From a virus, in IMG/VR virus record IMGVR_UViG_3300045988_046576, positions 1-30,953 of that record: a stretch of 30,953 nt of DNA; one strand, given 5' to 3'. The position numbers and the translations under genes are program-made. The notes under the pieces are model-generated. The model searched no databases. It saw nothing but the letters and a program-made list of their open reading frames with translations, and was not told the DNA's origin. Every line of letters begins with the position of its first letter. The first letter of the stretch is position 1. Shown piece after piece: positions 1,179-26,351 of this stretch.

Positions 1179-2906
1179 TTAATTTTCCAAATTAAATACG
1201 AATTTTTTATTTAAAATTACATAACCTTCTACTTGTTTGCCTTCAATTCTTTTTTGGCACTTTTTAACGTCATAGTATTTGTCAATCTCAGTAGCTTTAG
1301 GAGCTGTAGTAATTCCTGCAACAGTATAAGCATCTTTTATATACTTCTTAATATCAGCATTAGAATACCACATTCCAAGGCTTAAATGCTCATTTAATTT
1401 CTTTGCAGCTTTGTTATCTGTAGATTTATTAGAAGCTTTGAGTAATTCATCTTTAATTGCGCTAATGCAATACTTTAAACTTGCCATTTTCTCAAATCCG
1501 AGCTTTGTAATAGCATCCATTAACCAAGGATATTTAATCTTAGCGTTATCTAAGATAGGAGTTGCAAATCTATACTTTACTTCCCATTCAGCTCTAATAT
1601 CTTTAATAAGCTCTTTAAATGGTTTGGTATCTGAATCAAAGTCAATCTTAATTGAATTATCCTCGCATTCTACAACCTTTTTAAAGCCATTCTTTAAATA
1701 CTCATTGTTAAGATTAGTTCTAATTGAATATAAACCTCTTGTAACCTTGAAGTTAAATATATCAACTTTAGCCATATTAGGATCAAACGTAAAGGTATAA
1801 TCGTCATTTACTTGAATATAAGTATCACTGGTAAACTCTTTAAGTTTCTTTCTTGCAACTTCTGGCATTGCATTATAAGCCTCAACTGCAATTTTAGTCT
1901 CTTCGATATTCTGGAGATTCTTCTTTCTAAAATCCTCATAAGATACCTCAGCGTATCTTGTTGCAGAATATAAGTGAGTAATCCAATTTAAATACTTACT
2001 ATTTCTAATTCTACCAGCAATCTGCTGAATTGAAGTTGAAATATCAAGTAATGTCTGAGCTTTCTGAGCATCCGAAACTACTACAATACGTCCATTTTCA
2101 TCATAAATATCAGAACCTTCAAATACTGTAGAAGTTAATAAGTTAATCTTTTTAGGTTCATCTAATACAGTAGAGTTCTTAATTGTAAGTTTAGTCTTGT
2201 TATTCTTTGAATAAATAACTCTTGTATTTGATTCATTTAATTTGGCCTTCTGAATAAGGTTCTTTATAAAGTCAACTGAGTTAACAAAGATATATATATT
2301 ACCTTCAACCTGATTGTTTAAAACTGCAGTTATAAGCTTAATAGTTGAAGCCTCAACATTCTTACATTTAACAGCCTGAACTTTAGTCTCTATAACATCA
2401 TCCCATTCTTGTTTTACTAATGGAAGATCTTTTAATTCATCAAGTACAAACTCTTCTTCAAGTGGAGTTGCAGTCATAAAAGTATACTCTTTAAAGAGCT
2501 TATAGTTATCAAGTACAGGTTTAATAGCATCCTTTCTAAAGCTATACTGATTAAAAAGAATATGATACTCATCTACTAATAAACTATAGTCTTTAGGATT
2601 AACTGCCGAAATAACTTTTGGTAAAGAGTTATAAGTAACAATGATTTTAGGGCAATTAACTCGTTTTACATAATCTTTAATCTCTGCAATCGTTACTCCA
2701 GCAAATACACCGAAGATCTCTTCTGTACGTCTTTCATTAGGATACTGTTGAATCTTGTTCTCAACTAAACTGGTAAAAGGAACACAAATAACATAAGGCT
2801 TGTTACATTCAATAGCCATAGAAGTTCCACCACAACCAACTTTTCCTTTGTCAAATAAGCAATTTACAGGTAATTCATCAATAATGTTATTTAAATACGT
2901 TTTCAT
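1179..2906 (-). CDS. superfamily-2 (DExH-type) helicase, 575 aa
   Basis: Intact ORF in the standard code. It has a P-loop-like GKVGCGGTS, motif II LLVDEYH, motif III MTAT and motif VI QIAGRIRN. All 5 Trp codons are TGG, with no in-frame TGA. Confidence 0.7.
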   Translation of the reverse strand: MKTYLNNIIDELPVNCLFDKGKVGCGGTSMAIECNKPYVICVPFTSLVENKIQQYPNERRTEEIFGVFAGVTIAEIKDYVKRVNCPKIIVTYNSLPKVISAVNPKDYSLLVDEYHILFNQYSFRKDAIKPVLDNYKLFKEYTFMTATPLEEEFVLDELKDLPLVKQEWDDVIETKVQAVKCKNVEASTIKLITAVLNNQVEGNIYIFVNSVDFIKNLIQKAKLNESNTRVIYSKNNKTKLTIKNSTVLDEPKKINLLTSTVFEGSDIYDENGRIVVVSDAQKAQTLLDISTSIQQIAGRIRNSKYLNWITHLYSATRYAEVSYEDFRKKNLQNIEETKIAVEAYNAMPEVARKKLKEFTSDTYIQVNDDYTFTFDPNMAKVDIFNFKVTRGLYSIRTNLNNEYLKNGFKKVVECEDNSIKIDFDSDTKPFKELIKDIRAEWEVKYRFATPILDNAKIKYPWLMDAITKLGFEKMASLKYCISAIKDELLKASNKSTDNKAAKKLNEHLSLGMWYSNADIKKYIKDAYTVAGITTAPKATEIDKYYDVKKCQKRIEGKQVEGYVILNKKFVFNLEN

Positions 2907-2942
2907 AATTTAATAAATTTTAAAGGTTAATAATTTAAAGTT

Positions 2943-2985
2943 TTTTATTTTTCTTAATACAAAATGTGAGAAAAAAACTTGACAT
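2943..2985 (+). promoter_or_regulatory. conserved 43-nt bipartite motif, copy A
   Basis: TTTTATTTTTCTTA-N9-GTGAGAAAAAAACTTGACAT. It has the same 14+9+20 architecture as copies at 8285, 17820 and 25147. This copy lies between two minus-strand genes. Confidence 0.6.
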
Positions 2986-2988
2986 CAA

Positions 2989-3019
2989 CTGCCAAAAAGT
3001 GGCAGGACTTTCACCTGCC
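2989..3019 (-). terminator. overlapping hairpins, likely attenuating terminator after the 65-aa leftward gene
   Basis: The hairpins are CTGCCA(2989-2994)/TGGCAG(3000-3005) and GGCAGG(3001-3006)/CCTGCC(3014-3019). They share GGCAG, so they are mutually exclusive. On the minus strand the second hairpin is followed by ACTTTTTGG. Confidence 0.4.
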
Positions 3020-3028
3020 TGGAAGTAG

Positions 3029-3226
3029 TTAAAAAGAAATATTAAAAAATCCAAAAAATGAAGATTTTGATTTCTTAGCTTTCTCAGCCTCTTCATTTTC
3101 TTTAATTTCATCTAAGGCTTCTTCGCATAGAGTTTGAGCCTTTTCAAGAGCTCCTTCTTCAGTAACTTTACCGTTTACTATATCAAGGAAATATTCTAAC
3201 GCTTCAATTTGTTTTTCAGTATTCAT
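3029..3226 (-). CDS. small acidic early protein (65 aa)
   Basis: ORF track entry. It has 15 D/E versus 8 K (net about -7) and a hydrophobic C-terminus SSFFGFFNISF. It is the first gene downstream of two tandem host-type promoters. Confidence 0.55.
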   Translation of the reverse strand: MNTEKQIEALEYFLDIVNGKVTEEGALEKAQTLCEEALDEIKENEEAEKAKKSKSSFFGFFNISF

Positions 3227-3250
3227 AGTTATATGGTTTTATTGTTAATT

Positions 3251-3311
3251 TTGATAGTACAAATATACAACATATTTTTTCAATTTCCAAATTTTTGAGC
3301 AACTTTTTTCA
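3251..3311. repeat. 61-nt direct repeat, copy 1 (promoter cassette)
   Basis: TTGATAGTACAAA...AATTTCCAAATTTTTG...AACTTTTTTCA aligns without gaps to 3349-3409 (period 98 bp), with identical blocks of 13, 16 and 11 nt. Confidence 0.85.
3260..3291 (-). promoter_or_regulatory. Bacteroidota-type promoter P1 (leftward)
   Basis: The minus strand reads TTTG (3291-3288) - 20 nt - TATATTTG (3267-3260). This matches the Bacteroides/Flavobacterium consensus -33 TTTG / -7 TAnnTTTG with 19-21 nt spacing. It lies about 33 nt upstream of the ATG at 3226. Confidence 0.65.
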
Positions 3312-3348
3312 AAAATTTTTCATAGTGTTTAACTATCTATCTCTTATC

Positions 3349-3409
3349 TTGATAGTACAAAGATAATACATAAAAACTAAATTTCCAAATTTTTGGATAA
3401 CTTTTTTCA
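3349..3409. repeat. 61-nt direct repeat, copy 2 (promoter cassette)
   Basis: See copy 1. The conserved blocks coincide with the -33 and -7 promoter elements on the minus strand. Confidence 0.85.
3358..3389 (-). promoter_or_regulatory. Bacteroidota-type promoter P2 (leftward, tandem duplicate)
   Basis: The minus strand reads TTTG (3389-3386) - 20 nt - TATCTTTG (3365-3358), inside repeat copy 2. Confidence 0.6.
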
Positions 3410-3441
3410 GTGAAAAAAATTTAAAAAAAATATGCTAAAAA

Positions 3442-3473
3442 TTTGCATATTAAATATAAAATACTTATATTTG
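3442..3473 (+). promoter_or_regulatory. Bacteroidota-type promoter (rightward)
   Basis: TTTG (3442-3445) - 20 nt - TATATTTG (3466-3473), 45 nt upstream of the ATG at 3519. Confidence 0.6.
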
Positions 3474-3518
3474 CAGTACAATAATAAAATAAGTATTAAC
3501 CTATTAAATATTAAAATT

Positions 3519-3734
3519 ATGAAAAAAGTAAATAAAATATTAACTGGATTATTAGTAATCTCTATGTTTTTCGCTGGTTTTAGACTTTATAACGAGTACC
3601 ATAATGTACAGAAAGAAAGATTAGCTAAAATCGAAAATGCCTATTATAAATGCCAAGATTATCTTTGGGAACATCCTGGTGAATTAGATAGACAACAAAT
3701 TGACTCATTGTATAACTATTATTTAAATGAATAA
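3519..3734 (+). CDS. small membrane-anchored protein (71 aa)
   Basis: Internal ATG of ORF 3432..3734. The sequence MKKVNKILTGLLVISMFFAGF gives a single N-terminal TM/signal-anchor. Trp is TGG. Confidence 0.55.
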   Translation: MKKVNKILTGLLVISMFFAGFRLYNEYHNVQKERLAKIENAYYKCQDYLWEHPGELDRQQIDSLYNYYLNE

Positions 3735-3736
3735 TT

Positions 3737-4171
3737 ATGAAAACAGATATTAGAAGTTTAGTATTTACAAAGTCCTTATTTAAGGATTTATATGGAATAG
3801 ACATAGAATGATCTAAAAACGACTATTCCAGATATGATGGTACATTTAAATGGAATAATGTAGATTATATCGTTGAAGTAAAAAGAAGAAGATTTAAATC
3901 AGATAAATATGATACTACTCTTATTAATAGAGATAAGTTTGATCTATTAGCAAGAAACAATTCAGTATTAGTTATTATATTTGATGATGGAGTTTATATA
4001 TTTAAGGATGTTAAGAAAGCATTCGTTAGAGACTCTTATAAATATGGAAGATCAGCTACAGATTTTGATGGAGAATATGGATACTCTTTAAAGACAGAGT
4101 TATCTTTAAATAAAGCTATTAAAATAGATGTAGATACAGAATTTAGTAATTATAAGCCAAATGAACAATAA
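3737..4171 (+). CDS. putative PD-(D/E)xK-fold nuclease (144 aa)
   Basis: ATG 3737, TAA 4169-4171. The motif ...RYDGTF...DYIVEVKRRRF fits D...(D/E)xK. One in-frame TGA (IEWSK) made the ORF invisible in the standard-code track. Confidence 0.4.
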
Positions 4172-4463
4172 TGACATTATTTTAAAATATTATGATTTCT
4201 GTATAGAATTAAAGACTAAATTTGGAATGAATGAGGATTGCTTTCAGATGGCATTATTAGACATACTGGAAACACCTCATTCTAAACTCCAAAGTCTTCA
4301 TAATAAGAATGAATTAAAATATTGAATTACCAGAGTATTTAAAAACTACTGGTTTTCTAAAAATAGTAGATATTACTATCAATATAAGAAATATTATGAG
4401 ATAGTTAAGGAACCTATTGAACAGCAAATTATCAATGAAGAAAACTATGCAGAAGAAGATTAA
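4161..4463 (+). CDS. sigma-70 region-2-like protein (ECF-like sigma N-terminal half, 100 aa)
   Basis: ...NEDCFQMALLDILE...NELKYWITRVFKNYWFSKNSRYY resembles sigma region 2.1-2.4 (D..Q...l....W...i..N...d..R pattern). There is one in-frame TGA (KYWIT). Stop is TAA 4461-4463. Confidence 0.45.
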
Positions 4464-4704
4464 CATAGACGATATTATGGCGGAATACGATTTAGACTTT
4501 AGTATATTTACAGAGATGAATGATAGATTAATTGAAGTATATCCAAAATGGACATCTCTAAATAAAGCCGATAAAACAGTTATGGTATTATATGCCGAAT
4601 ATCAAAGTTATAGAGAAGTTGGAAAGATACTTGGAATTAGTCATACAACCATAGCAAGGGTAATAGCTAACATTAGAAATAAAATATGTGGAAGGATATG
4701 TTAG
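4435..4704 (+). CDS. sigma-70 region-4-like HTH protein (89 aa)
   Basis: LNKADKTVMVLYAEYQSYREVGKILGISHTTIARVIANIRNKI is a classic region-4 / LuxR-type HTH. The frame differs from 4161..4463 and overlaps it by 29 nt. The start is chosen at ATG 4435 (the track uses TTG 4417). Confidence 0.55.
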   Translation: MKKTMQKKINIDDIMAEYDLDFSIFTEMNDRLIEVYPKWTSLNKADKTVMVLYAEYQSYREVGKILGISHTTIARVIANIRNKICGRIC

Positions 4705-5252
4705 AAGAATGGAAACAATACAAGGATTTTCCTTTTGAAGTAAGTACTCTTGGTAGAGTTAGAACTATGCAAAGGGTAGTCAAATATAAGGATGGCAGAG
4801 AATATAATTACTCAAGTAAGATTATAAAACAATACATTACTAGAGAATATAGTTATATTGTGATTTCACTGCATTCCAAAACATATAATTTTAGAGTGCA
4901 TAGATTAGTAGCTGAAACATTTATACCAAATCCAAATAATTTACCTCAAGTAAATCATATTGACGAAAATAAGTTAAACAATAGAGTTGAAAATCTGGAG
5001 TGGTGTACTGCTAAGTATAATTTAAATTATGGCACTCATACTAAGAAAGTTGTTGAAAAATTAACAAATGGCCCACTTGCTAAAAAAGTAGCTCAGTATG
5101 ACTTAGATGGCAACCTAATTAAAGTATGAGATTCTATAAGAGAAATAAAAAGATGCTTGGGATATGATAATGGAACCATTTCCAAGTTTTGTAGGAACAA
5201 AGTAAATTGTAAACATTGTTATGGGTTTATTTGGAAGTATTCTAATAATTAA
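4686..5252 (+). CDS. HNH homing endonuclease (188 aa)
   Basis: It has a NUMOD4-like N-terminus (FEVSTLGRVRT), an HNH_3-like [37 protein letters not shown], and an IENR1-like tail ending GFIWKYSNN. The TGA at 5127-5129 is read through and the stop is TAA 5250-5252. Confidence 0.8.
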
Positions 5253-5274
5253 TACTGTTATAGTTATATATACT

Positions 5275-5553
5275 ATGTCAGGATTTGATATTCCTATAAG
5301 GAAAAGATTATGAAATTACTTATATAGAGGATTACCATTTAATGAAGATTGGATGATTAAGCCTTGGGTGTGTAGTTGGTGTTTAGGCACCTGAATTGGT
5401 ATAATTAGTTTATTTTGATTTGGGTTTAGTTTGCCGAACTTATTATTAGTATTGCTAGTTGCATACTATAACGACTTAATTAAAGATATTATGATATTAT
5501 TAAAAGATCTATTTAATAAGCTAATAGATTTGATTTATAAAGTCATTAACTAA
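5275..5553 (+). CDS. small membrane protein, DUF1360-like CxxC-W motif (92 aa)
   Basis: MSGFDIPIRKRLWNYLYRGLPFNEDWMIKPWVCSWCLGTWIGIISLFWFGF... contains 3 TGA and 3 TGG Trp codons. It is invisible in the standard-code track. Confidence 0.5.
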
Positions 5554-5574
5554 CAATTATATATTTTATAGAAA

Positions 5575-5895
5575 ATGAACAAATTAACTAAAGAACAGTA
5601 CAATTATTTAAGCCAATTTGAAGATAGAATGCGATGCGCTCTTCATTCTAATTACTGCCGAAATATTCAGCGTAATGATTTATTAACAATTAAAGAGATA
5701 TATGAGTCTCTTATTGGCACTACTTATAAGATGTCTATGAGTTGCTCTACTTGTATGTTGAATCTAATGAAGAGAATTGCAGTGCCTTATTTTGAATATC
5801 AAAACGAATTAGCAAATGGAACAGTTACCAAAGAAAGTGGGGAGACCGAAAAAGGAAGAAGTACCACAAGAACAAATAGACGAAAAAAAGACTAG
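5575..5895 (+). CDS. hypothetical Cys-containing protein (106 aa)
   Basis: ORF track entry with a CSTC motif. Its basic C-terminal tail overlaps the terS start by 80 nt. Confidence 0.45.
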   Translation: MNKLTKEQYNYLSQFEDRMRCALHSNYCRNIQRNDLLTIKEIYESLIGTTYKMSMSCSTCMLNLMKRIAVPYFEYQNELANGTVTKESGETEKGRSTTRTNRRKKD

Positions 5896-6256
5896 ATACT
5901 TATATGCTGCAAAGCTATTTAATAAAGGATGATCCCGAAATAAAGTAAGCGAAGAATTACAAGCTAAATATAATGTTAGTCAATCAACAGCTGCTCGATA
6001 TATTGGTGAAGCCTATAAAATAATTGCAGATAAGAATGACAATCTTATTAAGAATCTACGTCATATACAATTAACAAGATTGGAGACATTATTAGATATG
6101 GCACTCGCTAAAGGTGATATTAGATCTGCAAATGAGGTTATTAAAACTATAAATTCAATGTTCGGATTAAATACACCTGAAATACAAGTTAATATACAAA
6201 ATAACGAATGCCAGTTTAAATTTGGAGATCCTATTTTAAATGACAAAGATATATAA
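5816..6256 (+). CDS. terS: terminase small subunit-like HTH protein (146 aa)
   Basis: MEQLPKKVGRPKKEE... (AT-hook-like) is followed by an HTH (VSEELQAKYNVSQSTAARYIGEAY) and a helical C-terminus. It lies immediately upstream of, and overlaps, terL. One in-frame TGA (KGWSR). Confidence 0.55.
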
Positions 6257-7487
6257 AGGATACAATCCATTCGTTTATCAGTTTAAAGTACATACTGCTA
6301 TGAACGAATCGTACAGATCAGGTAAAGTATATACAATTAAAGCTAAACGACAAGTTGGTAAATCTTTACTTGCCGAAAATGAACTTTTAAGATTTGCAAT
6401 AAATTATCCAGGTACAGTTAATTGCATAGTTGAACCTACTTTAGGCCAATCTAGAAAGGTATTTAAGGAAATAGTTAATGCAACAATAGATTCTGACATT
6501 ATAAAGAGAAAGAATGAAACTCTTTTGGAATTAGAGTTTACTAATAATAGTTCGATACTCTTTAGATCTGGTGAACAGATGGATTCTTTACGAGGATTCT
6601 CAGTAAGTGGATTACTTGTATTAGATGAGGCTGCTTATTTAAAAGATGAAGTATTTGAGATTATAAAGCCTACTACAGACGTATGATCTGCTCCAATCTT
6701 AATAATCAGCACACCTAGATTTAGAGAGGGATTCTTTTATGAATGCTTTATAAAAGGACAAGATCCAAAATATGAAAAGTTTTATAAGTCATTCGATTGA
6801 GCATTAGAAGATACATCTATGCTGCTTGATAAAGAGAAGCTAGAAATGTATCGATTAACTACTTCCAAAAATAAATTTAAGACTGAATATCTTGGAGAAT
6901 TTGCAGACGATGATGGATGTCTATTTAATAACATATCAGAATGTATATTAAGTGAAAAACCTTCATATACAAACCTTTATATAGGAGTAGACTGAGCAAC
7001 TGGAAGCGGTAAAGACTATACTTGCATTACTGCTTTAAATGAAAAAGGCCAAATGGTATTTATTAAATATTTTAACGACAAAACTCCAACGGAACAGGTT
7101 GATATACTGACATCTATACTCTCTGAATATCAAGATGTTATAAAGACAGTACAAGTTGAACAGAATTCAATTGGTAGTGTTTTTTATGATATTCTCATTA
7201 AGAAGAATCCTAAAATACATATAGTTAAGTTTTTAACTACTAATTCTTCTAAAGCTAACCTTGTTAATAAGCTACAAGCTGCATTAGAGAATGGTAAAAT
7301 TGGATTATTAAAAGATGATAAACTTTTAAATGAGTTGAGGCTATATGAAGCTAGTTATAATCCGAGAACTGGAAATGTAACATATAACGCACCATCTGGA
7401 TTTAATGACGATACAGTGATTAGTCTTATGTTGGCATACGACTCTTTAAATAACACTAAAGGTAAATATAACTTAAAATTTAAATAA
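6240..7487 (+). CDS. terL: terminase large subunit (415 aa)
   Basis: Track ORFs 6240..6686 and 7053..7487 are in the same frame and are joined by reading 3 TGAs as Trp. It has Walker A KAKRQVGKS, Walker B LLVLDEAA, and nuclease motifs IGVDWATG and GFNDD. Confidence 0.85.
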
Positions 7488-7488
7488 T

Positions 7489-8273
7489 ATGATAAAATCT
7501 TGGAAAGAAATGGATTTAAGTCATTATAAGAAACTGACTGAATTAAAAAGTAAAGAATGGGAAAATGACTTAGAAATGAATATAGCTATGATAGCTATGC
7601 TATCTGATCAATCTGAAGAGGATATAATGAATTTAGAGATTAAAGAGCTTCAGGAAAGAATAGACGCACTTGGCTTCTTAATTAATCCTTATAAACCTTC
7701 TACTCCTGAAAAAAGCTATTTAATTGGAGATAGAGAGTATCAAGTATTTTTTAATGTAAATAAAATGACAGCAAGTCAATATATCGACTTTCAAAATTTC
7801 TTTAAAGAGTATGATAATTATATGCCAAATTTAGCTGCTTGTTTCTTGCTTCCTAAAGGTAAGAAATATGGAGAAGATTATGATCCTTTAGAAGAAGCAG
7901 AATACTTAAATAAACATCTTACTGTTGACATATTTTCAGACATTATGTTTTTTTTTGTAAAGTTATCGCAGCTCTCAACAATGAATTCCCTGTACTCTTT
8001 GGAAAAAGAGATGAAGAAGAGCCTGAAGAAAACAAAGAACAAAGTAGAGAGAATAAGGATTCTAAGAACTTTGATTCAGACGAGACGGTTAATACTTTTA
8101 CTCAAAAGTGGAATTGAATTATCTGAATAGATAAAGTCAGTGAAACTACTCGATTAAATTGGCATCAAGTATATGATATGAATGTTAAAGAGTTCTTGAA
8201 CTTAATATGCTATATAATAGATAAGGGTAATGAGGAAAAACGACAAATAGAAGAATGAAAGAGACGTCATTAA
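7489..8273 (+). CDS. hypothetical protein requiring a -1 frameshift at a T9 run (about 261 aa); possible chaperone-type G/GT gene
   Basis: The initiation frame (frame 1, ATG 7489) runs to T9 (7948-7956). The -1 frame (frame 0) then encodes a plausible acidic linker plus ...TFTQKWNWIIWIDKVSETTRLNWHQVYDMNVKEFLNLICYIIDKGNEEKRQIEEWKRRH up to TAA 8271-8273. That frame has no start codon of its own. Confidence 0.55.
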
Positions 8274-8284
8274 AATTTTAAAGT

Positions 8285-8327
8285 TTTTATTTTTCTTATA
8301 CCTAAAAGTTACAAAAAAACTTGACAT
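8285..8327 (+). promoter_or_regulatory. conserved 43-nt bipartite motif, copy B
   Basis: TTTTATTTTTCTTA-N9-GTTACAAAAAAACTTGACAT, 38 nt upstream of the ATG at 8366, which is the first gene of the tail block. Confidence 0.6.
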
Positions 8328-8365: not shown

Positions 8366-8854
8366 ATGGTAGAACAAGAATTAAAATTTCCAAATTTAGA
8401 GGCACTATTAGAGAAATATGGAGATGTTATTATATCTTTATATAGACAGCAATTATTACAGTCAAATACTGATGCAACTGGTGCTTTAGGAAACAACCTT
8501 AATTATATAGTTGAAACACAAGATGGAGACTATGAATTAAGTCTAGACTTACTAGACTACTGGAAATATGTGGAGGATGGAAGAGCAGCTGGCAAATATC
8601 CTCCACTAAATTCCATTAGATCCTGGATTAGATCAAAGCGTATTGTTCCTCGAATGTATAATGGTAAATTACCTACACAAGAGCAATTAGCCTATTTAAT
8701 AGCTAGAAAGATACATTTACAAGGTACAAGAGGAAAACACTTACTTTCTAACGCTTTAGACATTATGGAGAACAATTATATGCAAATCATAGAAGAAAGT
8801 GTTACAAAAGATTTGCAATCACAAGTAGATAATTATGTATTTAAAAATTTTTAA
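8366..8854 (+). CDS. putative head-tail joining / tail completion protein (HK97 gp10-like), 162 aa
   Basis: ...TDATGALGNNLNYIVE...YWKYVEDGRAAG... resembles the HK97 gp10 family pattern (dTG.L..s........Ya.yvE.G). The start is moved to ATG 8366 because the track's TTG start lies inside motif B. Confidence 0.35.
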   Translation: MVEQELKFPNLEALLEKYGDVIISLYRQQLLQSNTDATGALGNNLNYIVETQDGDYELSLDLLDYWKYVEDGRAAGKYPPLNSIRSWIRSKRIVPRMYNGKLPTQEQLAYLIARKIHLQGTRGKHLLSNALDIMENNYMQIIEESVTKDLQSQVDNYVFKNF

Positions 8855-11046: not shown

Positions 11047-11526
11047 ATGGAAGTATATAAAGACATTAAAGGATATGAGGGACTTTACCAGATAAGTAAT
11101 ACTGGTAAAGTCTTCTCTATAAAAAACAATAAAGAACTGAAGAGTGGATATACTCCAGCTGGATATACAAAAGTTCAATTGTGAAAGAATAAGTCTGGCA
11201 AGTGATTCAATATTCATAGATTAGTTGCAGAAGCGTTTATTCCAAACGTAGAAAACTTACCACAAGTAAATCATATAAATGAGATAAAGGAGGATAATAG
11301 GGTTGATAATTTAGAATGATGTACAGCTCAATATAATGTTACTTATGGAAATAGATTAAATAATAATAAAAAACCTGTAATACAGGAAAGCTTAGATGGC
11401 ACTTTTATAAAGAGATGAAATTCAATTGCTGATACTAAAAAATATGGGTTTGTTCCCCAAAATATAGTACAGTGTTGTATTGGTAATATTTCACAACATA
11501 AAGGATATATTTGAAAATATGCGTAA
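11047..11526 (+). CDS. HNH homing endonuclease (159 aa)
   Basis: [24 protein letters not shown]... (NUMOD4-like) is followed by [37 protein letters not shown] and a tail ending GYIWKYA. All 5 Trp codons are TGA. It overlaps the next gene by 8 nt. Confidence 0.8.
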
Positions 11527-17819: not shown

Positions 17820-17862
17820 TTTTATTTATCTTAGATACCTGTGTGAGTAAAAAACTTGACAT
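17820..17862 (+). promoter_or_regulatory. conserved 43-nt bipartite motif, copy C
   Basis: TTTTATTTATCTTA-N9-GTGAGTAAAAAACTTGACAT, 79 nt upstream of the GIY-YIG gene and head block. Confidence 0.6.
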
Positions 17863-17941: not shown

Positions 17942-18475
17942 ATGGAAAATATGTATAAAATTTATATGCACAAAAGTCCATCTGGTAATATTTATATTGG
18001 ACAGACTAAAACCTCAACTAATAGAAGATGACAAAATGGCAATGGATATAAAAGTTGCTATGTTTTTAATAGAGCTATACATAAATATGGTTGGGATAAT
18101 TTTGAGCATAAAATATTATATAAAGGTTTATCTCAAATAGAAGCAAATATGATTGAGGAAGATCTTATTTATTATTATAAAAGTATTGGGAAATCGTATA
18201 ATATTAAAGATGGGACTACCTTATCAGTAGATATGTGCAACAAGATTTCCAAAACATCAAAAGGAAAACATCGCTCTCCTAATACAGAATTTAAGAAAGG
18301 GCATTCTTTAAACAGTAAAACGGTAGAACAATATACTTTAGATGGGCACCTTATTAAGGTCTGGAATTCTGCAAGTGAAGCTAGTAGACAATGTAATATT
18401 TGTAGGAGTGGAATTTGTAGAGCTTGTAGAGGTATTACACAAACTTATAAAAACTATATGTGAAAATATGCTTAA
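17942..18475 (+). CDS. GIY-YIG homing endonuclease (177 aa)
   Basis: KIYMHKSPSGNIYIGQT...RRWQNG..GYK...AIHKYGWDNFEH...YNIKDG. The tail has an IENR1-like motif ending YMWKYA. It has 2 in-frame TGAs and overlaps the next gene by 8 nt. Confidence 0.85.
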
Positions 18476-25137: not shown

Positions 25138-25146
25138 TGTCAGTAT

Positions 25147-25189
25147 TTTTATTTTTATTATAACTTAAAGTGAGTAAAAAACTTGACAT
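25147..25189 (+). promoter_or_regulatory. conserved 43-nt bipartite motif, copy D
   Basis: TTTTATTTTTATTA-N9-GTGAGTAAAAAACTTGACAT. A 9-bp hairpin (25191-25199 / 25204-25212) and a T-rich tract follow immediately. Confidence 0.6.
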
Positions 25190-25288: not shown

Positions 25289-25681
25289 ATGTATTACACT
25301 CTATTAATTCAGAATACTGTGAGTAAAGAAGTATATACATATAATTTGGAGAATTTAAATTATGACGAAAATATTTATTATAAGTTTAATATTGTGCTGG
25401 ATGATAATACACCTGACGGAGAATACCAATATTTGTTATTTGAGAATCCAAATCAAATTGAAGTTGTAGTAAACTATAACAACGTCTATGATAGCAAGTT
25501 ATATGGAGATACTAAAATATTAGTAACGTTTACTAATACACTTACTAATGGAACTCAGATATTAATTGCTGGTAAGCCTATTATGTGACTATCTAGTGGA
25601 TTAATAAGAATAGGAGACTATAAATCTAACAATTATCAATATAACAAACAAAACAAATACCAAGTATATGACAGAAAATAA
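25289..25681 (+). CDS. hypothetical protein (130 aa)
   Basis: The start is moved to ATG 25289 (MYYTLLIQ...). The TGA at 25586-25588 is read through to TAA 25679-25681. Confidence 0.45.
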
Positions 25682-26351
25682 GAAAAGTTTGAAGTCAGGT
25701 ACGATTAAAAGAAATTATACTGGAGTAATATATTTAATTCACTCTAAGATAACAGGAAAAATGTATATAGGGCAGACTTGCAGATCATTTAATACGAGAT
25801 GAAGGCAACACTGTAATGAGAGCTTTAATGAAAATTCAAAAAGTTATAATCATCATTTTCATAAAGCTATAAGGTTATATGGAACAGATAATTGAGATTA
25901 TAAAATACTTAAAATATTTTCCTGCTCTTCAAAAGAATTACTAAAGAAACAGTTAAATATTTCTGAAGTTGAATATATAACTTTATATGATACATTTAAA
26001 AATGGATATAATTCGACTTTAGGAGGGGAGGGAACTATAGGAAAAGATCCCTGAAATAAGGGTAAAAAAGGAGTGCAACAATGCAATGAAGAGACTCGAA
26101 AAAAGATGAGTGCATCTAGATCTGGAGAAAAGAATGGTATGTATGGAAGACACCGAACCGAAGAAGAGAAGGAAAATCTACGGAAAAGGTGAAGTAAACC
26201 CGTAAACCAATTAGATTTAGACGGTAACTTTATTAAGAGATGAAATTCTTGTAAAGAAGCACAACAAAGTGGTTATAAAAATATTTATAGTGTACTTTAT
26301 GGAAAAAATAAACAATGTAAAGGGTTTAAATGAGAATGGGCCCAAAAATAA
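25668..26351 (+). CDS. GIY-YIG homing endonuclease (227 aa)
   Basis: GVIYLIHSKITGKMYIGQT...RWRQH...YGTDNWDYKIL...NGYNSTLGGEG, with NUMOD3-like NEETRKKMSASRSGEKNGMYGRHRTEEEKENLRKRW and an IENR1-like tail GFKWEWAQK. Six of 7 Trp codons are TGA. Confidence 0.85.

Follow-up and report, generated by a model that had tools for sequence, protein, structure and literature searches.

A candidate split sigma factor encoded by two overlapping genes of an AT-rich phage genome

We analysed a stretch of 30,953 nucleotides (nt) of the IMG/VR virus record IMGVR_UViG_3300045988_046576 (the window, meaning this stretch at its full length), an AT-rich segment of a phage genome (30% GC) that carries genes for terminase, portal, a Peptidase_M15 cell-wall hydrolase, which is a probable endolysin, and several homing endonucleases. 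A little upstream of the genes for the small and large terminase lie two short open reading frames (ORFs) that overlap out of frame, ORF1 and ORF2, whose products are very probably the separated halves of a sigma factor homologue. A first-pass annotation of the window had read the pair as a sigma factor of the extracytoplasmic function (ECF) type distributed over two frames and had offered three accounts of this arrangement: a genuine two-subunit sigma factor, a +1 frameshift or assembly indel, and disruption of the locus by a neighbouring homing endonuclease gene.

Two overlapping reading frames and their relatives

The following features define the locus, with protein lengths given in amino acids (aa).

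4161..4463, plus strand: ORF1, gene for a predicted stand-alone sigma region-2-like subunit; ATG at 4161, TAA at 4461–4463, 100 aa with TGA read as Trp
4323..4325, plus strand: in-frame TGA that codes for Trp55 of ORF1; the W55 column is invariant in the closer family
4447..4704, plus strand: ORF2, gene for a predicted stand-alone sigma region-4-like subunit; 85 aa from ATG 4447, 89 aa from ATG 4435
4447..4463, plus strand: junction from the start of ORF2 to the stop of ORF1, a 17-nt overlap (ATGCAGAAGAAGATTAA) delimited by comparing start codons with relatives

ORF2 is read in the +1 frame relative to ORF1 and ends at 4704. Coordinates, frames, peptides and the TAA end of ORF1 agree with the first-pass annotation, which had, however, silently assumed that ORF1 is open along its whole length. 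This holds only if the TGA at 4323–4325 encodes Trp; read with the standard bacterial code, ORF1 stops at this codon after 54 aa. TGA stands in frame in many long genes of the window, three times in the terminase gene (6240–7487), and the Trp codons of eight long genes comprise 17 TGA versus 35 TGG. At Trp55 itself, the window, L001 and L002 have TGA, and L003, L006, L010 and L018 have TGG. Judged from the reading frames, TGA is a Trp sense codon throughout this genome, including positions 4323–4325 and 5127–5129. A search of the window and eight related loci for a tRNA that would suppress TGA returned zero tRNA genes, which makes translation of TGA as Trp by the host itself probable. In one distant relative, L024, TGA seems to act as a stop codon. 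Our attempt to find the host through a prophage copy of the ORF1 family in 185,579 species genomes gave no useful result. None of the 32 plus-strand genes checked is preceded by a Shine–Dalgarno-like sequence, which suggests a host that does not rely on such sequences; the leaders of the genes are A/T-rich (for example aaaatATG). Since the checked genes of the whole genome lack a Shine–Dalgarno sequence, its absence before ORF2 is uninformative.

The extent of the overlap depends on the start codon of ORF2. The 29 nt reported initially are obtained from ATG 4435, a start confined to the closest relatives of the window, whereas ATG 4447 is the start common to the relatives and reduces the overlap to 17 nt. 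Among relatives, ORF1 and ORF2 overlap by 11, 14, 17 or 20 nt, with ORF2 always in the +1 frame; the 11-nt overlap, together with a 59-nt overlap in L023, is taken from called genes only.

We examined 21 related stretches on 19 contigs, with identities of 27–99%, made up of 14 IMG/VR stretches (12 contigs), four long Logan/ENA contigs and three distant contigs. All 14 IMG/VR stretches (71–99% protein identity) contain two ORFs in +1 frames. The four long contigs represent one relative, for which the collection's index has 873 blocks, and are split as well. At greater distance, in L022–L024 (about 25–30% identity) and in the closer L020 (45%), a homologue of ORF2 lies directly downstream of a homologue of ORF1 (E = 1e-9 to 1e-47). 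The question of whether homologues in related genomes are fused or split, raised with the first annotation, is thus answered by 21 split stretches out of 21, the exception being a further divergent contig, L025, that carries a fused form. Database homologues lead to the same picture: those of ORF1 (n = 56) measure 62–104 aa, bar one miscall of 157 aa, those of ORF2 (n = 111) all measure 47–89 aa, and fused proteins are absent from both sets of close homologues. Purifying selection acts on both ORFs, with 0.13–0.21 non-synonymous versus 0.52–0.98 synonymous changes per site. As far as sequence comparison can tell, the two-gene split is a real, unusual design and not a sequencing error.

Two relatives of L003 (P0051 and P0054) carry a true 1-nt frameshift inside ORF1, where 48 N-terminal aa are followed by an alternative frame. 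Indel errors or variants thus exist in data of this kind, unlike the constant junction between ORF1 and ORF2.

Sigma-like domains in separate and single-chain forms

There is good evidence that ORF2 encodes a sigma region-4 domain, comprising regions 4.1 and 4.2 with the helix-turn-helix. Aligned by hhalign to six E. coli sigma factors, the ORF2 family matches RpoE residues 120–182, corresponding to regions 4.1–4.2, with P = 5.8e-5 and a probability of 66%, while the best of 30 shuffled controls reaches only P = 0.072. Most of the 111 ORF2 homologues carry a precomputed match to PF08281 (Sigma70_r4_2). The initial description of ORF2 as a textbook region 4 was nevertheless too strong: its best Pfam match is the generic family HTH_50 (2.7e-8), and Sigma70_r4 (1.8e-3) and Sigma70_r4_2 (6.8e-3) both stay below the cut-off.

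For ORF1, several signals that are individually weak are consistent with a very divergent sigma region-2 domain. A profile search of 1.84 billion representative proteins collects an ORF1 family of about 600 clusters at E ≤ 1e-3, all unannotated. Of the best 150 clusters, some 130 consist of stand-alone proteins of ~100 aa; about 15 hold longer proteins (156–245 aa) in which the ORF1-like domain is N-terminal. Sigma70_r2 is the top Pfam match of the family consensus (E = 3.5e-3; 17.6 bits versus a cut-off of 24 bits). PHROG matches of the 130 stand-alone members place two sigma factor families at the top (12 and 11 members), all others having at most two members each. The core-binding motif of region 2.2, D-x-x-Q, is present in the ORF1 family: D26 and Q29 are nearly invariant in 130 divergent members and align with the region-2.2 D..Q of RpoE (DVVQE). 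Against the six E. coli sigma factors, hhalign places the ORF1 family on region 2 with P = 0.0059, compared with 0.2 for the best of 30 column-shuffled controls. The six-factor set replaced an earlier profile seeded with E. coli RpoE (hhalign P = 0.023), which was too narrow because the seeded search returned near-identical orthologues only.

The structure of ORF1 was modelled with AlphaFold through P0010, a protein that differs by one residue. The model (predicted local distance difference test, pLDDT, 83) consists of five helices, followed by a disordered segment at residues 87–100. Its 13 best matches in BFVD are phage proteins of 160–232 aa with TM-scores (template modelling) of 0.55–0.68 and match probabilities of 0.93–1.0 for twelve of them and 0.57 for the thirteenth; three of these 13 are named sigma-70 or RpoE-like.

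Fused homologues, 156–245 aa long, account for about 10% of the clusters of the ORF1 family, with roughly 90% standing alone, and they provide the link between the two ORFs. With hhalign, the ORF1 family aligns to the N-terminal domain of the fused form (99.9%, E = 4e-31) and the ORF2 family to its C-terminal domain (95.7%, E = 9e-9). P0180, a single-chain form of 156 aa encoded at L025:522-992, matches the ORF2 profile with its C-terminus at 1.7e-11 and has the two neighbour genes of the split pair on either side. ORF1 thus corresponds to the first and ORF2 to the second domain of single-chain relatives, as the alignments, the profile match of P0180 and the gene order indicate. Because P0180 occupies the gene-order slot of the split pair, a fission or fusion has taken place within this phage group; P0180 is known from one 1.3-kilobase contig, and an assembly artefact is possible for that case. 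Fused members match phrog_1740, 'RNA polymerase sigma factor', over their full length down to 2.2e-7, and the fused consensus matches the same family at 1.8e-12, with weak Sigma70_r4_2 and Sigma70_r2 matches as well. When the P0180 model is compared with the PDB, sigma factor chains predominate among the 50 best matches.

In the window, the two domains are found on two ORFs in different frames, not on one polypeptide. The break is bordered by an acidic, disordered C-terminal tail of ORF1 and by a strongly conserved segment of ~35 residues at the N-terminus of ORF2 (INIDD...F.EMDDRL), which is shortened in the fused P0180.

Gene neighbourhood and a recurrent intergenic motif

The pair is embedded in a conserved gene order.

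3737..4171, plus strand: upstream neighbour of 144 aa with a D...EVK motif; conserved gene order
4686..5252, plus strand: gene for an HNH homing endonuclease, inserted after ORF2 in some loci and missing in others; Pfam matches to HNH_3, NUMOD4 and NUMOD1, in-frame TGA inside
5221..5553, plus strand: downstream neighbour, a predicted membrane protein of 110 aa; conserved gene order

A homologue of the upstream neighbour is present in every locus covering that side, directly or behind an inserted HNH gene, and is kept in the distant L020, L022, L024 and L025 down to about 27% identity. Its product has no match in Pfam or PHROG and is possibly a nuclease of the PD-(D/E)xK type, to judge from its residues; in L004 and L005 its homologue is fused to an HNH domain. 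Wherever a locus reaches far enough, the gene of the membrane protein is found after ORF2 or, in L025, after the fused sigma gene.

The Pfam matches bear out the HNH gene at 4686–5252 that the first-pass annotation had reported. It is present after ORF2 in the window, L009, L013 and L014 and absent in L003–L008 and L010–L012, all of which are split. Going by this distribution, the HNH gene is neither a part of the sigma pair nor the cause of the split: disruption by the endonuclease is rejected because relatives that lack the gene are equally split. The gene is accompanied by an alternative C-terminal tail of ORF2 (4640–4704; ARVIANIRNKICG... versus QRFIKQIRERLC) and by a different N-terminus of the downstream membrane protein (5221–5300), and L003 and L005 have the 'HNH-type' tail of ORF2 and no HNH gene. 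This pattern looks like co-conversion of the flanks, or loss after homing. Five genes of the homing endonuclease type occur in these ~31 kilobases (347–670, 4686–5252, 11047–11526, 17942–18475 and 25668–26351), namely three HNH, one GIY-YIG and one with a NUMOD1 match only; four of the five share a C-terminal 'LDG.(L/F)IK.W(D/N)S', which is also visible as a DNA repeat.

A motif of ~44 nt, TTTTTATTTTTnTTA..GTGAGnAAAAAACTTGACAT, recurs in the window.

2942..2985, plus strand: motif copy, core 2972–2985; between the leftward early genes 1179–2906 and 3029–3226
8284..8327, plus strand: motif copy, core 8314–8327; 38 nt before the structural gene block starting at 8366
17820..17862, plus strand: motif copy, core 17849–17862; intergenic, before 17942
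25146..25189, plus strand: motif copy, core 25176–25189; before gene 25289 and the portal gene block

The motif, reported initially as 43 nt long and as a natural partner of the sigma pair, is real: all four copies lie on the plus strand and between genes, and relatives conserve it. The copy at 8284 is found at the same place in L015–L018 and the copy at 2942 in L013 and L016–L018; across L015–L018, three of the four sites are conserved, the site at 17849 lying beyond the stretches covered. The motif contains an inverted repeat in which an upstream TGTCA(A/G) pairs with TTGACA. Three of the four copies are followed on the 3' side by a GC hairpin, with a run of T in at least one. Possible roles are those of a promoter, a regulator binding site or a terminator–promoter module, and as a working hypothesis we regard the motif as a candidate target site of the sigma pair. 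The TTGACA had been considered as an ordinary host -35 element and was dropped, as no consistent -10 element lies downstream.

Further elements lie in the early region. The leftward gene at 1179–2906 (minus strand; 575 aa) has no Pfam match and may, from its N-terminal P-loop-like GCGGTS motif, encode a replication or helicase protein. Repeated elements of 64 nt (TTGATAGTACAAA.ATA...AATTTCCAAATTTTTG) occur at 3248–3311 and 3346–3409, and also at 1148–1211; those at 3248–3409 sit between the leftward and rightward early genes, and the elements are probably early promoters or operators.

A two-subunit reading and its alternatives

We consider a natural two-subunit ECF-like sigma factor, whose halves are made as separate polypeptides, to be the best reading of the locus and a probable one. 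This option, one of the three offered initially, is supported by the relatives, which keep two ORFs, and by the two halves, which align in order to the fused homologues. Several results weigh against it. Searched alone, ORF1 has no match in Pfam, PHROGs, GenBank phages or PDB sequences, and Pfam returns no match, Sigma70_r2 included, for ORF1 or for any of 32 relatives out of 32. For single sequences, this is literally the outcome that the first-pass annotation had named as refuting its reading; the assignment of ORF1 to sigma region 2 emerges only from family and structure matches. Profiles built from 5, 32 and 130 members of the ORF1 family retrieve zero sigma factors from the PDB sequences, the family-level Sigma70_r2 matches lie below the Pfam cut-off with hhalign probabilities of 2–6%, and Foldseek comparison of the ORF1 model with the PDB yields SigW matches only, which are non-significant (E about 6). 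The PDB matches of the P0180 model likewise all have E > 0.1 in Foldseek. Finally, we could recognise no -35/-10 layout in the intergenic motif, and a hairpin resembling a terminator often comes after it. Searches of 50,697 GenBank phages, by tblastn with ORF1, ORF2 and the fused P0262 and P0264 and by blastn with positions 3000–8000 of the window, revealed no relative beyond homing endonuclease genes and one weak sigma factor match.

That the split is an artefact or a broken gene, produced by a 1-nt assembly error or left as a pseudogene by the neighbouring HNH homing endonuclease, is extremely improbable. Homing endonuclease genes do adjoin the locus, and P0051 and P0054 show that rare contigs with a frameshift inside ORF1 exist; yet the same split recurs in independent assemblies from many samples, also where the HNH gene is missing, and selection acts strongly on both halves. 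A programmed +1 ribosomal frameshift at or near the stop of ORF1, which would give a single-chain sigma factor instead of or alongside the separate products, is very unlikely. ORF2 lies in the +1 frame in every relative, and the stop of ORF1 falls only 4–6 codons into ORF2, so that a +1 shift at this point would join nearly complete halves. The junction itself argues against such a shift: the ORF1 codon preceding the stop is GAT, GAA, AAC or GAC, none of which is able to re-pair in the +1 frame, the sequence of the overlap varies between lineages, and we found no conserved slippery P-site codon at a conserved shift site, as in prfB, at the junctions of relatives. In most relatives, a TAA or TAG directly 5' of the ATG closes the frame of ORF2 (ttaaATG, tagATG), which leaves 14–17 nt for any shift. 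The +1 phase is also not special to ORF1 and ORF2, because other gene pairs of the genome overlap in the same phase, by 11, 17, 32 and 80 nt. Assembly error, programmed frameshifting and endonuclease damage, and with them two of the three options offered initially, are all rejected on the combined grounds of the split kept in relatives, the junction sequence, the selection on both ORFs and the split loci free of HNH genes.

The remaining alternative accepts two genes and denies that their products form a sigma factor. ORF2 would then be a helix-turn-helix activator or repressor of late genes, similar to RinA or ArpU, and ORF1 would be helical and serve a different purpose, such as modulating RNA polymerase or acting as an anti-sigma-like factor. 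The best Pfam matches of ORF2 are indeed generic helix-turn-helix families, ORF1 by itself lacks a significant database match, and in phages of Gram-positive bacteria RinA-type activators are encoded at this very place ahead of terS (PMC3152322). We nonetheless regard two independent proteins as unlikely. Every relative examined, down to 27% identity, has ORF1 and ORF2 side by side, and the single-chain form found in about 10% of the family clusters has the same domain order; moreover, the alignment of ORF2 extends beyond the helix-turn-helix to all of region 4, including 4.1, and the family-level matches of ORF1 converge on sigma factors.

In ordinary sigma factors, region 2 binds the clamp of RNA polymerase and reads and melts the -10 element, and region 4 attaches to the beta flap and, with its helix-turn-helix, recognises the -35 element. 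In a two-subunit sigma factor of the kind we propose, the chain break would be placed in the flexible linker between the region-2-like and region-4-like domains. Expression of the pair would come from the rightward early operon, whose start near 3432 lies downstream of the promoter-like repeats at 3248–3409. Translation of ORF2 would begin at its own ATG and probably be coupled to the termination of ORF1, as we infer from the position of the ATG 11–14 nt before the ORF1 stop and from a genome that lacks Shine–Dalgarno sequences; such coupling would yield similar levels of both products. The two proteins would assemble on the host core RNA polymerase, where the acidic tail of ORF1 and the conserved N-terminal segment of ORF2 may stand in for the missing linker, and the assembled pair would turn on late operons and those of structural genes, perhaps through the four 44-nt motif copies. 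A position just upstream of the terminase genes is common for late-gene activators in phages. Joint action of ORF1 and ORF2 as a two-subunit sigma factor that serves late genes is a likely proposition at best. We extend it only tentatively, at slightly less than even confidence, to a general scheme in which the members of a large phage family (~600 clusters) usually take the form of a sigma factor with two obligate, non-covalently paired subunits, the tail and the N-terminal segment replace the linker, the pair reads the 44-nt motif as its promoter, and, in this phage, the region-2 subunit needs TGA to be read as Trp.

To our knowledge, sigma factors are almost always single chains. Single-chain members of phages (phrog_1740; BFVD A0A6J7WFY6 and A0A6J5R4K5) and the ECF factors RpoE, SigW and M. 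tuberculosis SigH and SigL share with the phage pair a two-domain design of region 2, acidic linker and region 4, in which the first domain of the pair is a putative region 2, and the pair keeps the region-2.2 D..Q motif of cellular ECF sigma factors. Single-chain sigma factors measure about 160–230 aa, whereas the phage pair is cut in the linker, and the phage family is so divergent that the Sigma70_r2 model misses every single member tested.

Late transcription of phage T4 offers a functional comparison. The sigma-2-like gp55 acts there together with gp33, which binds the beta flap, and the sliding clamp gp45; the genes of gp55 and gp33 are not adjacent. As in T4, two small phage proteins would divide the tasks of the sigma domains, a late-gene role being our proposal for the present pair. 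T4 gp33, as far as we know, has no DNA-binding helix-turn-helix and needs the clamp, whereas ORF2 keeps the canonical region-4 helix-turn-helix. Between the ORF1, ORF2 and fused families and T4 gp55 and gp33, hhalign detects no similarity (P = 0.07–0.72), in a test low in power because gp55 itself failed against the E. coli sigma profile (P = 0.15). The SPO1 proteins gp33/gp34 were considered as a two-protein sigma analogue and dropped, gp33 being described as an inhibitor of sigma-A in a 2026 paper (PMC13401047).

The closest system in concept is the cellular SigO–RsoA of B. subtilis, described as having 'the sigma2 and sigma4 domains in two separate polypeptides' and, within the literature searched, the one natural exception named (PMC7826278, which cites Xue et al. 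2016). Compared by description, the two systems agree in that the sigma-2-like and sigma-4-like parts are encoded separately. They differ in that SigO–RsoA is cellular and stress-responsive, whereas the present pair is phage-borne and precedes packaging genes; the phage pair is further set apart by overlapping genes, by a gene order that equals the domain order of an unsplit sigma factor and by fused relatives in the same phage group. Like the late activators RinA, ArpU and LtrC (PMC3152322), the pair would constitute a small regulatory locus ahead of the terminase genes and would switch on the operon for packaging and lysis; unlike these single proteins, it consists of two genes, and the Pfam and PHROG scans gave no match to them. 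In engineered split ECF sigma factors, the halves are fused to the parts of a split intein and covalently rejoined by protein splicing (PMC7090010). The phage pair likewise has two separate halves, lacks an intein and would pair non-covalently. Within the full-text literature searched, we found no description of a natural split sigma factor encoded by a phage.

The evidence supports the view that the pair is a naturally split, two-gene, ECF-like phage sigma factor representing a large unannotated family. Gene calling with the standard code cuts ORF1 to 54 aa and so hides the gene. If the view is correct, the pairs could be used in synthetic biology as ready-made two-input transcription switches, and hundreds of clusters of 'hypothetical' phage proteins of 100 aa that lack a Pfam family would receive their first functional label. 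A split form of the sigma factor would then be widespread in uncultivated phages, and would provide natural material for studying the cooperation of sigma domains 2 and 4 on RNA polymerase when no covalent linker joins them.

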